A DNA stretch of 64,000 nt, from assembly GCA_034669905.1 (NCBI GenBank), contig JAXMOL010000012.1, positions 1 to 64,000 on the forward strand. The letters run 5' to 3'. Position numbers: made by a program. Source of the stretch: Candidatus Hydrogenedentota bacterium. GTDB lineage: Bacteria > Hydrogenedentota > Hydrogenedentia > Hydrogenedentales > JAEUWI01. Positions 39,001 through 42,000 of this stretch are shown in pieces (positions within the stretch are counted from its first letter, which is position 1; the number at the start of each line of letters is the position of its first letter).

Positions 39001-42000
39001 GAAGCCACCGGTGACCGAATTGCCGACTTCGCCCTGAATTTCTTTTCCCAATACGCGGAGAATAACGGCCTGGCCGATGACGAAGATGGCCGCGCTCAGT
39101 TCGCCGATTTTATCGGGGGCGCTATCAATAAGGGCATCGAAGAAGCGCGGGGAATTCTTACCGCGTTGAGCGCCCTGAATCCGGATACGACCGCAGGCAT
39201 CGATGCGACGGCGAACCACATCCAGGGACGGTTGGATGATTTCGTCACAAACGGCCTTAGCTAAATAAATTTTTCATTTTCTTAACGTTGTGCGGTAAAA
39301 AGCTTGAACCGCGCAACGTTTTTTTTGTACTATGTTGCTCCGCTGCCCGGGTGGTGGAATTGGCAGACACGCAAGATTAAGGATCTTGTGCCAGCAATGG
39401 CGTGCGAGTTCGATTCTCGCCTCGGGCACCATATTAAACGTTAAAGGCCCTCGTGCTTCCGCAAGGAAACACGAGGGCTTTTTCGTATTGGCCTTGTACC
39501 GTGATAATCCGCTGCTTGTTGATAAGGGTGGCTTGGACAAGCAAGCGCCCTCGCTCAGAGCGGCGGCACGCCACCAGCAGGCCATAGAGGGGCAAGAACA
39601 CGAATCAGACCCAGTCCCCTGCCCGATTTCGTGTTTGACAGCGCGCGCGATCCCGAATATACTCGTCGGAACGCACCCGTAGCGCAACCGGGGGCGGTGG
39701 TCAGTGAACGGCGACGGGAAGCCCTTGGGCGGCATCCCCTTATCGTGAAAATTCGCAATCGGTTCTTAAGCTGCAGGAACTTCTTTCCTGGAAGGGTGCT
39801 CTGTCATGTCTGGTCTGTCTTTGTCCCGTGTACTTATTACGAACGTATCGGCCCTATCCCGAATCGCTTTCTGCGGTGGATTGCTGGTTACACTCCTATT
39901 CGCTCTTCCCGCCTGGACGCAGGGGTTAGGTTTCGCGGCGGGCGCGGGCGGCACGGAGGATGACTTGGGCCTGGGCGTGGCCGTGGACGCTTTGGGCAAT
40001 GTCTACACCACGGGCTATTTCCGGCAGACGGCGGATTTCGACCCGGGTGCGGGCACCGAGGAACACACGAGTGCGGGGGAGAACGACATATTCGTTCAGA
40101 AGCTGGATGCAAATGGTGCCCTGGTCTGGGTGCGCTGCATTGGCGGCACGAGCTATGACCGGGGTGTGAGTATCGGCTTGGACGGTACCGGTAATGTTTA
40201 CGTCACCGGTTCCTTTCGGAACACGGTGGATTTCGACCCCGGCGCGGGTACGGCAAATCTGAGCGGCCCCGGCGGCAATGACGGCATCTACGTGCTGAAG
40301 CTCGATTCGGATGGGGACTTTGTCTGGGCGAAGGCCATGGAAGGAAGCGGCTTCGGCACCGCCTGGGACCTCGCGCTGGACGCGTCTGGGAACGTTCATA
40401 TTACGGGACAGTTTGTCGGTACGGTGGATTTCGACCCGGGCGCGGGCACCGCCAATATCGTCAACAACGGCGAAGACGGTATCTTCGTCCTCAAGTTGGA
40501 CAGCTCGGGCGATTACGTTTGGGCCAAGTCCATGACCGGGGCAAATTTGAGCCAGGGTCGGGGTATCGACGTCGATAGCAGCGGCAATGTTCTCGTTACG
40601 GGGTACTACACCGACACCATTGATTTCGACCCGGGCGCGGGCACCGCCAATCTGACCAGCGTGGACGGAAGCGATGTTTTCGTTGTGAAGTTGGACGTAA
40701 ACGGCGACTACGTCTGGGCGAAGTCCGTGGGCGGCGACCAGACGGACTTGGGCTACGACATTGCGGTGGACGGGTCGGGCAATGTGCACACCGTCGGCGA
40801 ATTCCGGAACTCGGTGGATTTTGATCCGGGTGCGGGCACGACAACCCGGACGGCCACAGCAATCGGCTACATCTTCCTCTTGACCCTTGATAGCAATGGC
40901 GATTTCGATCGGGTTCGTACCTTTGGGAGCACGAATGGTGGTGATTCGGCGCAGGGCATTGTCGTCGACGGTGACGGCAACACGATTGTCACCGGGGCCT
41001 TTCGCGATACGATAGACTTCGATCTCGGCGTGGGTACGGCGGAGTTCACTTCCTCGGGCGTCGATGACATCTTCGTGATCAAATTGGACAACACGGGGAC
41101 CTTTGTCTGGGCCCAGGCCCTGGGCGGGTCCTTTAGTGATCGGGGGTGGGGAGTAGCCATGGATAACTCAGGGAATACCTATGTCACGGGGTTATTCGGC
41201 GGTACCGTAGATTTCGATCCCGGTGCGGGCACGGCGAATCTGACGACGGTGGGGCAGGACGACGCTTTTGCGTTGAAGCTCACGCCGCCCGATATTGATG
41301 CACCGACCGTCGACACGATTACGCCGAGCACGACGGGGCCCACCAACGCAGACAGCGTCGATTTCACAGTCACCTTCAATGAAGCGGTCGTAAACTTCGA
41401 TGACGATAACGACATAGTGGTCAGCCACGGGGGAACGGCCCATACTGGCGTGACCATTACGGGCGGTCCGACCGACTACACGGTTTCCGTCAACGGGCTT
41501 TCAGGCGATGGTTCCTTCACCTTGGCCGTGGACACGACGTCGGACGTGGAAGACGGCGCGGGGAATTCCCTTGCCTCCAGCGTGACCAGCGCGGCGGTGA
41601 CTGTTGACAACACTGCACCGACGGTCGCCATTGGTGCGCCTTCGGTTTCGACGACCGCCGTCGGCCCGGTGAGCTTTGACGTGACCTACTCCGGTGCAGA
41701 CACGATCGCGCTGACGGCCAACGATATCGTATTGAATAGCACCGGTACAGCCGTGGGCACCGTGATGGTGACGGATGGAACGACGGCGACCCCAACGGTG
41801 ACCTTGAGTAATCTGGCCGGGAGCGGGACCCTGGGGATTACGATTGGCGCAGGAAGCGCCAGTGATGCCGCAGGGAACCTGGAGGCATTGGGAGCGACCA
41901 GTGCCACGGTTGATGTGGATAATGGGACGGCACCCACCTTGCCGGTATCCTTCGACTTTGCCTCCGCTTTCAATGGCAACGGCGAGGTATCGGCGTATGG

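Follow-up and report, generated by a model that had tools for sequence, protein, structure and literature searches.

A tRNA-Leu(AAG) in place of tRNA-Leu(GAG) in Hydrogenedentales and its likeness to the TadA substrate tRNA-Arg(ACG)

How are the leucine codons CUU and CUC read in a bacterium that has a tRNA-Leu with the anticodon AAG and none with GAG, and what becomes of the adenosine at wobble position 34? The question is raised by a locus in a 64,000-nucleotide window (the whole stretch of DNA analysed, positions 1 to 64,000 of contig JAXMOL010000012.1) of a Candidatus Hydrogenedentota bacterium of the order Hydrogenedentales.

The tRNA gene and the leucine tRNA set of the genome

ARAGORN detected a single tRNA in the window, tRNA-Leu(aag). 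The initial annotation had taken it for a genuine gene, and the match to Rfam RF00005 (50.8 bits against a gathering score of 29, with a full cloverleaf) bears this out. The features of the locus are as follows.

39284..39326, + strand: terminator-like hairpin with eight consecutive T after it, at the end of the upstream ORF 38713..39264 (folding)
39345..39431, + strand: tRNA-Leu(AAG) gene, type II with long variable arm, CCA encoded (ARAGORN; Rfam RF00005)
39377..39383, + strand: anticodon loop UUAAGGA, tRNA positions 32-38 (sequence and arm table)
39443..39483, + strand: intrinsic-terminator-like hairpin with U run, directly 3' of the tRNA (folding)

A34 corresponds to window base 39379, the presumed deamination site. 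A comparison with 24 homologues from the order revealed compensatory changes in 13 of the 26 predicted pairs, and loop positions 33-38 (UAAGGA) were invariant, with C or U at position 32. The upstream hairpin folds with −19.8 kcal/mol (z −4.2) and the downstream hairpin with −30.7 kcal/mol (z −6.6; none of 200 shuffled sequences was equally stable). Since the latter directly follows the tRNA, the gene is a stand-alone unit. A candidate weak promoter (TTGAAC, 19 nt, TACTAT at 39303-39333), read by eye, overlaps the upstream hairpin. A scan for promoter and terminator consensus sequences reported neither these hexamers nor the two hairpins, which were seen by folding.

Whole-genome ARAGORN returned 43 tRNAs (102 contigs, 7.44 Mb, completeness 95.71%), among them the leucine tRNAs aag, caa, cag, taa and tag but no gag, and only Arg(acg) and Leu(aag) carry A34. 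Both the five-gene leucine set and the pair of A34 tRNAs are identical to those initially annotated. Counted on a rough set of 3622 ORFs that do not overlap and have at least 250 amino acids, CTC, CTT and CTG made up 0.318, 0.127 and 0.358 of the leucine codons, close to the earlier values of 0.324 for CTC and 0.108 for CTT; CUC is 2.5 times as common as CUU genome-wide. These observations support the AAG gene as the only cognate CUY decoder in the genome.

Two readings would undo this conclusion. A normal tRNA-Leu(GAG) could lie in the unassembled part of the 96%-complete metagenome-assembled genome, with the AAG gene as an extra. Genes for Ile(gat) and Ala(tgc) are missing from the genome, which indicates that the rRNA operon region is unassembled, and in one relative (G074) the distance between Leu(gag) and Ala(tgc)/Ile(gat) is 5 kb. 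Against this, the one-contig genome G066 of the same genus has the same five leucine tRNAs and no GAG, which makes a gene hidden in an assembly gap very unlikely. The same five genes without gag are found in the one-contig genome G032 and in two 10-contig genomes of the order, and G090 differs from this set only by one additional cag in a tRNA array. Furthermore, none of 133 genomes of the order has both types together. That the AAG gene is instead a decaying or non-functional copy is improbable in the extreme, given the complete, high-scoring cloverleaf, the compensatory changes together with the invariant loop, the terminator hairpins on either side and the presence of the gene in all 13 families of the order; no observation spoke in favour of this reading.

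Distribution in the order and returns to G34

Across these 133 genomes, AAG was found in 115, GAG in three (G074, G082 and G114) and neither type in 15. ARAGORN confirmed tRNA-Leu(gag) in the three genomes, and AAG is absent there. The A34 gene had been described as order-wide, with no GAG-type gene in any relative; the first statement holds for 115 genomes and every family, but not for the three GAG genomes and the 15 with neither type, and the second has to be given up. Both outgroup genomes have tRNA-Leu(GAG), as had been stated for the other classes. Since AAG occurs in all 13 families and both outgroups have GAG, a switch early in the history of the order, as originally proposed, is the parsimonious reading; what that proposal missed are returns to G34. 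In a ribosomal-protein tree (FastTree, local supports), the three genomes with GAG branch from within groups of AAG genomes, which suggests a basal switch after which at least two lineages went back to G34.

The clearest case is G074, whose GAG gene differs from the AAG gene of its sister G075 at four of 86 tRNA positions, namely 32, 34, 38 and one variable-loop base. This pattern indicates that C32 and A38 travel with A34. The promoter-like and terminator flanks are common to the two loci, the shared cassette spans only about 250 nt, and the flanks of the G074 locus were found on other G075 contigs, none of them with a tRNA. For G082 and G114, contamination was considered as the source of the GAG genes and rejected. 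ORFs on their GAG contigs match the genome studied here at 24-61% identity, a range consistent with, though no proof of, their belonging to the order; since the two genomes are sisters with differing GAG genes, we treated these genes as real. Their GAG anticodon arms equal those of the outgroups, and outside the loop only one position separates the G082 gene body from that genome's own CAG gene (55 nt compared). The comparison does not discriminate between retention, transfer and a shift of a CAG anticodon as their origin. An ORF-level BLAST of the two 10-kb regions flanking the tRNA in nine genomes revealed no common neighbour genes, so that synteny does not show the GAG and AAG loci to be orthologous.

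A loss of the CUY tRNA in one genus (g26) was likewise considered and rejected, because tRNA-Leu(aag) was recovered in G046 with a covariance model and in G042 and G044 with a wider pattern. The variable arm of these genes is one base shorter than the gap permitted by the first patterns, which they had escaped.

Anticodon arm, TadA and the state of position 34

tRNA-Arg(ACG), which is edited to ICG, is the canonical bacterial TadA substrate. Its anticodon arm in this genome is CCTGA CTACGGA TCAGG, and that of the Leu(aag) gene is CAAGA TTAAGGA TCTTG. Within the order, the AAG loop is CTAAGGA in 111 genomes and TTAAGGA in four. The order loop shares six of seven positions with the Arg loop CUACGGA and a GAG-type loop (UUGAGGG) three of seven, as previously counted, and the loop of this genome shares five of seven. 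The common features are A34 together with U33, G36, G37, A38 and C32 (U32 in this genus), and in most families of the order also the closing pair A31-U39. Taken over the core GA-CUAAGGA-UC of the order consensus, 10 of 11 bases equal those of the Arg arm of this genome and the sole difference is A instead of C at position 35. At the level of sequence, an Arg(ACG)-like loop of tRNA-Leu(AAG) is confirmed, and the case for mimicry is strengthened by the G074 gene, which apart from one variable-loop base departs from its AAG sister only at 32, 34 and 38. Outside the arm the two tRNAs differ, as Leu(AAG) has a type II body with a long variable arm. Both the order loop and the loop found here fit YUAMGRA, the TadA editing consensus reported from S. 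pyogenes (10.1101/2023.09.19.555891).

The genome encodes one TadA (contig C13, 131681-132187), as initially annotated; it is the one match to NCBIfam NF008113 above the equivalog cut-off (167.8 bits, cut-off 150), and the two other deaminase-domain matches are a ComEB-like dCMP deaminase and RibD. A TadA homologue is present in 129 of 135 genomes of the phylum, and the closest solved relatives of the protein are 7cph and the S. aureus enzyme 2b3j. We aligned TadA from 41 genomes of the phylum (30 AAG, three GAG, two outgroups, six with neither type) and compared it with solved TadA proteins and with eight TadAs from other Leu(AAG) lineages, for which ten genomes had been queried and two gave no match at E 1e-20 or better. 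No residue that tracks Leu(AAG) was found in this set. A Cys in the motif 'VGCVI' distinguishes the TadA of the order from that of the outgroups and also occurs in the S. pyogenes enzyme (2nx8). It was rejected as a determinant, since it occurs in only two of the eight other lineages and is kept in the GAG genomes of the order.

We infer that A34 is deaminated and that TadA accepts A35. In the reading that probably explains the data best, CUU and CUC have no other cognate tRNA in the organism than tRNA-Leu(AAG), whose A34 would be converted post-transcriptionally to inosine by the single TadA, the enzyme for tRNA-Arg(ACG) as well. The tRNA-Leu(IAG) thus formed would read CUU and CUC and could also read CUA; CUA and CUG have tRNAs of their own besides (UAG and CAG). 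The ancestral tRNA-Leu(GAG) would have become AAG when G34 was replaced by A close to the root of the order. Accompanying changes at 31-39, 32 and 38 would have left the arm almost identical to that of tRNA-Arg(ACG), and G34 would have been regained later in at least two lineages.

Two kinds of data were examined for the state of position 34. Contigs from three RNA runs (X1-X3) were mostly 40-nt pieces matching leucine tRNAs of other organisms, and a fourth run (X4) contained a relative at 90-95% identity. One 219-nt contig (X2, record 5), with a depth of only 2.5, covers window positions 39268-39449, the whole tRNA gene included, with five differences, one of which is an A>G somewhere along the contig. 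Codon usage in 19 ribosomal-protein genes (30-120 CUY codons per genome) gave a CUU-over-CUC log odds, relative to six G34-decoded boxes, of 1.04 for the AAG group (47 genomes) and 0.52 for the GAG group (five genomes). The genomes compared are related and not independent, and 20 of the 47 AAG genomes score lower than the highest-scoring GAG genome. Sister pairs shifted in the same direction (Fisher p 0.002 for G082 against G097, 0.013 for G114 against G097 and 0.14 for G074 against G075). The I34-read Arg CGY box showed no comparable excess of U-ending codons, with a log odds of 0.18 in AAG and GAG groups alike. Therefore, the leucine shift fits an unmodified A34 as well as I34.

An unmodified A34 would read CUU by Watson-Crick pairing and CUC, and more, by superwobble, with tRNA-Leu(UAG) helping across the box. 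Several observations favour it besides the relative enrichment of CUU in AAG genomes. Engineered A34 tRNAs of four-fold boxes are reported to be unmodified and functional in E. coli, and often neutral or beneficial (10.64898/2026.05.15.725136). E. coli TadA is reported not to edit a streptococcal tRNA-Leu(AAG), a substrate of the present type (10.1101/2023.09.19.555891), so that editing would need an adapted TadA, and no TadA signature tracks the tRNA here. Furthermore, the loop is of the GAG type (TTAAGGG) in 10 of the 119 Leu(aag) genes listed from other genomes, which indicates that A34 can exist with a loop that is not Arg-like. Nevertheless, we consider an unmodified A34 rather unlikely. 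The genome-wide preponderance of CUC is a poor match for a decoder that works best with U, TadA is present, and the arm core of the order equals that of the streptococcal tRNA-Leu(AAG), which is reported to be fully I34 in vivo. Moreover, A38 occurs in all 115 AAG genomes and position 32 is always C (111) or U (4), and G074 lost C32 and A38 together with A34. The co-change at 32 and 38 could, for its part, reflect tuning of decoding strength rather than TadA recognition. On balance, editing of A34 to inosine by TadA remains our preferred reading.

Known systems and wider occurrence

Hydrogenedentales add a further lineage to a known oddity; they do not represent a new mechanism. The novelty implied at first was overstated, as replacement of GAG by a tRNA-Leu(AAG) that TadA edits to I34 has been published for Lactobacillales, with experimental evidence from Oenococcus and Streptococcus: the tRNAs of S. 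pyogenes, S. mutans and O. oeni are reported to be I34-modified, and streptococcal TadA performs the reaction in vitro (PMC13249217; Wulff et al., 10.1101/2023.09.19.555891). As in that group (O. oeni, S. pyogenes, S. mutans and the S. pneumoniae TadA), the A34 leucine tRNA replaces GAG and never occurs beside it, the order-consensus arm core is the same as in the Streptococcus loci, and a single homodimer-type TadA accompanies a loop that fits the editing consensus; I34 is presumed here. The origin in Hydrogenedentales is independent and lies in another phylum with GAG in both outgroups, the order has secondary returns to G34, and the TadA seems to lack the C-terminal extension discussed for the S. 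pyogenes enzyme, as judged from the alignment ends. The genome studied here is GC-rich (59%) with CUC as its main CUY codon, whereas the Lactobacillales in question have AT-rich genomes in which UUA and CUU are used.

In the published picture, which is based on GtRNAdb, almost all tRNA-Leu(AAG) genes are from Bacilli (PMC13249217). Our scan of 185,579 species genomes (one per species) yielded at least 119 further Leu(AAG) genes; those listed are mostly from Clostridia and Bacilli, but other phyla are represented too. The core GA-CUAAGGA-UC is present in 94 of the 119 listed, including the Streptococcus loci. We hold it evenly balanced whether tRNA-Leu(IAG) is, rather than a peculiarity of Lactobacillales, a recurrent second TadA substrate in many phyla that converges on this core every time, with Hydrogenedentales as a natural experiment in which an order-wide gain was followed by at least two reversals with 32 and 38 flipping alongside 34. 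If this is true, it would delimit the smallest set of determinants that tie A34 to the loop around it. The present results place a known decoding variant, presumed I34 for leucine, in a GC-rich uncultured phylum remote from the lactic acid bacteria in which it was characterised, and show the Bacilli-centred picture to be a sampling effect of cultured genomes. The G074/G075 pair and the other reversals within the order offer ready substrates to determine what TadA or the ribosome needs at tRNA positions 32 and 38. In annotating these genomes, Leu(AAG) should not be taken for an error, and CUC belongs among the codons that it decodes.

Eukaryotic tRNA-Leu(IAG) has the same anticodon and follows the same decoding logic, in which I34 reads U, C and A. 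It is made by ADAT2/ADAT3, a heterodimer of relaxed specificity that needs the full tRNA, in contrast to the single TadA-type gene found here. Hosts of unmodified A34 tRNAs such as Mycoplasma have reduced, AT-rich genomes. The Mycoplasma tRNA-Thr(AGU), named among such tRNAs via references in 10.64898/2026.05.15.725136, likewise replaces the G34 isoacceptor of a four-fold box; in the genome studied here, by contrast, TadA is present and the loop copies that of a TadA substrate.

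The tRNA-Leu(AAG) gene and its genomic setting

tRNA-Leu(AAG) is the sole tRNA gene that ARAGORN detected in the 64-kb window, and it scored 50.8 bits with the Rfam tRNA model (gathering score 29). A strong hairpin with a T run behind it lies on either side of this solitary gene; folding gave −19.8 kcal/mol (z −4.2) upstream and −30.7 kcal/mol (z −6.6) downstream. Neither hairpin was reported by a simple promoter/terminator consensus scan.

Features at the tRNA-Leu(AAG) locus (window coordinates)
39345–39431, + strand: tRNA-Leu(AAG), anticodon loop UUAAGGA, A34 at base 39379
39268–39449: tRNA gene and flanks, spanned by a 219-nt contig of metatranscriptome run X2 (depth 2.5, about 97% identity, one A>G difference anywhere along the span)
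39806–46639, + strand: ORF of 2277 amino acids, beginning about 370 nt 3′ of the tRNA gene

The genome (102 contigs, 7.44 Mb, 59% G+C, completeness 95.71%, contamination 0.85%) contains 43 tRNA genes according to ARAGORN. In agreement with the initial annotation, the leucine set in this assembly comprises aag, caa, cag, taa and tag without gag, and Arg(acg) and Leu(aag) are the only A34 tRNAs. Ile(gat) and Ala(tgc) are also absent from the assembly, which indicates that the rRNA operon region is unassembled. CUC was likewise rightly described as a major leucine codon (CTC 0.318, CTT 0.127 and CTG 0.358 of leucine codons among 3622 long ORFs serving as a rough gene set) and TadA as single: one match on contig C13 (131681–132187) scored 167.8 bits with NF008113, above the cut-off of 150, and the remaining two matches with a deaminase domain are a ComEB-like dCMP deaminase and RibD.

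It is very unlikely that a GAG gene is hidden in an assembly gap of this MAG, because four well-assembled relatives have none. A covariance model built from the CUN leucine tRNAs of the order was run on G066 (one contig, same genus), G032 (one contig), G090 and G130 (10 contigs each), and ARAGORN identified aag, tag, cag, taa and caa among the model matches in all four and gag in none. G090 contains one additional cag inside an array of 12 tRNA genes in 2 kb (L335, G090:C11:57195–60280), which also includes Arg(tcg) and resembles a tRNA cluster of the mobile or phage type. Outside the window, in the tRNA-Trp(CCA) of the focal genome G000 (C8:170145–170220; arm GCGGC CTCCAAA GCCGA), G27 and A43 are mismatched and the anticodon stem has 4 bp, in agreement with PMC13092985, which reports the 4-bp form as the only one in Hydrogenedentota.

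Distribution and probable history of the anticodon switch

In our search, the order was represented by 133 genomes, this one among them, and the rest of the phylum by two. With a first pattern, which covered the D-loop, anticodon arm and T-loop and required R at position 34, we obtained matches in 95 genomes (93 AAG, 2 GAG). A looser one added 19 AAG genomes among the 38 without a match, and the covariance model together with a widened gap contributed G046, G042 and G044 as AAG, while a BLAST match in G074 turned out to be Leu(gag). In total, 115 of the 133 genomes, representing all 13 families, carry AAG; Leu(aag) was confirmed by ARAGORN in the 35 with fetched loci, the other 80 being counted from the pattern match alone. 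Three genomes (G074, G082 and G114) carry GAG instead. The replacement is thus not strictly order-wide, and the earlier statement that no relative has a GAG gene does not hold, while both outgroups have the expected Leu(GAG) with the loop UUGAGGG.

Fifteen genomes, 60–98% complete (G073 98%, G017 92%, G055 91%), yielded neither type. As most of them have AAG-bearing sisters in the ribosomal-protein tree, we read them as assembly gaps. The covariance model recovered only cag, tag, caa and taa from G073, G040 and G017, and G073 may represent a true loss of the CUY-reading leucine tRNA. In G074 (L046, G074:C106, 15038–15206), Leu(gag) adjoins an rRNA operon spacer and is separated by 5 kb from tRNA-Ala(tgc)/tRNA-Ile(gat); if such a placement were common, it would account for the lack of a CUY tRNA in some MAGs. 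Two Leu(AAG) copies, identical over the matched stretch, were found in each of three genomes.

Duplicate Leu(AAG) genes
G016: C60, 41439–41523 and 48847–48931
G021: C137 and C158
G080: C43 and C69

The tree was inferred with FastTree (LG+gamma) from concatenated 19 ribosomal proteins and SecY of the S10-spc operon (61 genomes, 3183 columns, columns with more than half gaps dropped; five genomes with more than 30% gaps) and rooted on the two outgroups. It included every family, every GAG genome and 9 of the genomes with neither type. The ingroup was supported with 0.995. G074 (GAG) and G075 (AAG) are sisters (1.0) within family f10 (0.998), and the sisters G082 and G114 (1.0) are nested in a 20-tip clade of family f13 (0.935), of which the other 18 tips comprise 16 AAG genomes and two with neither type (G118, G125). 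The proposed switch at the base of the order hence remains parsimonious, but the nested GAG genomes add at least two returns to G34 after a single G34-to-A34 change near the base. Long coexistence of both genes would demand many losses, and none of the 133 genomes carries both types.

The returns are of two kinds. The G074 and G075 tRNAs differ only at positions 32 (A/C), 34 (G/A) and 38 (G/A) and at one variable-loop base, so that three of four substitutions lie within the 7-base loop. Their promoter-like and terminator flanks can be aligned, while the broader neighbourhoods are not alike. This amounts to a genuine reversion within a single gene cassette. The GAG anticodon arms of G082 and G114 equal those of the outgroups (CTAGC/CCAGC TTGAGGG GCTAG/GCTGG), whereas the acceptor stems agree neither with those of the outgroup GAG genes nor with those of AAG genes in the order. 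Outside the loop, the GAG gene of G082 is almost the same as the CAG gene of that genome. These genes may stem from retention, transfer or an anticodon shift.

Anticodon arm and decoding of CUY codons

The Leu(aag) arm of the focal genome (CAAGA TTAAGGA TCTTG) mimics that of its Arg(acg) (CCTGA CTACGGA TCAGG). G30-A31 and U39-C40 of the Arg arm are common to Leu(AAG) of most families, with G31-C39 replacing A31-U39 in f13, while the ancestral GAG arm has C31-G39, U32 and G38. The loop is CTAAGGA in 111 AAG genomes and TTAAGGA in four (this genome, G062, G063 and G067).

TadA probably deaminates A34 of this tRNA to I34, which is our best reading of the sequence data. It is favoured by the presence of TadA, by C32/A38, which is kept in 115 of 115 AAG genomes and lost along with A34 in G074, and by an arm that fits the TadA editing motif YUAMGRA (Wulff et al., 10.1101/2023.09.19.555891) and is the same as in organisms with proven I34. 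According to that study, tRNA-Leu(AAG) of S. pyogenes carries full I34, with O. oeni credited as the first case, and Katanski et al. 2026 (PMC13249217) report I34 in Streptococcus by tRNA-seq and in-vitro deamination by streptococcal TadA. The main rival, an unmodified A34 decoding by superwobble, is considerably less probable. In its favour, tRNA-Leu(AAG) is edited by S. pyogenes TadA but not by E. coli TadA (10.1101/2023.09.19.555891), and engineered four-fold-box A34 tRNAs in E. coli are described as unmodified yet functional (Raval et al., 10.64898/2026.05.15.725136). Moreover, we found no TadA signature tracking Leu(AAG). The single A>G difference in the RNA contig that spans the tRNA (depth 2.5) may or may not fall on A34.

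Ribosomal-protein genes of AAG genomes showed a modest shift towards CUU, with log odds against six G34-read boxes of 1.04 (47 AAG genomes) versus 0.52 (5 GAG genomes) and a Mann-Whitney p of 0.007, which overstates the evidence because the genomes are related; 20 of the 47 AAG values lie under the highest GAG value. The shift shows that translation responds to the anticodon change, and it fits I34 and unmodified A34 alike.

Leu(AAG) in other lineages

The Hydrogenedentales Leu(AAG) is a real and well-conserved feature. The initial annotation was right in outline, but the feature is not new in kind: it represents a published system in a further lineage of independent origin, and it adds informative natural reversals. 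According to PMC13249217, AAG and GAG are mutually exclusive among Lactobacillales families, and almost all bacterial Leu(AAG) genes in GtRNAdb belong to Bacilli. Searches covering part of the literature gave no passage on tRNA-Leu in Hydrogenedentota among the text examined, and no work on Hydrogenedentota or Lachnospiraceae among the matches listed for tRNA-Leu(AAG).

When each of 185,579 species, represented by a single genome, was scanned for a D-loop/YTAAGR/T-loop pattern, at least 121 loci were obtained; among the matches listed, ARAGORN identified 119 Leu(aag) genes in 117 loci. Of these 119, 94 share the 11-base core GA-CTAAGGA-TC.

Anticodon loops of Leu(aag) genes among the matches listed
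CTAAGGA: 100 of 119
TTAAGGG: 10 of 119
TTAAGGA: 5 of 119
TTAAGGT: 4 of 119

By a hand count from record titles, about 75 of the at least 121 loci belong to Clostridia and other non-Bacilli Bacillota, mostly Lachnospiraceae (many of L183–L302), and 20 to Bacilli (Streptococcus, lactobacilli, Vagococcus, Pseudolactococcus). A further 24 fall into other groups, including Cloacimonadota (5), Planctomycetota (3), Fermentibacteria (2), Hydrogenedentota (2), 'Deltaproteobacteria' MAGs (2), Sumerlaeia and Acidimicrobiales. Among the matches listed, Lachnospiraceae and other Clostridia outnumber by far the Bacilli stressed in the papers cited here. Ten listed genes (L187, L200, L201, L207, L217, L219, L222, L288, L290 and L295), scattered over Verrucomicrobiota, Nitrospirales, Patescibacteria and other lineages, keep the GAG-type loop TTAAGGG; they could reflect recent G34A mutation, an unmodified A34 tRNA or an assembly error.
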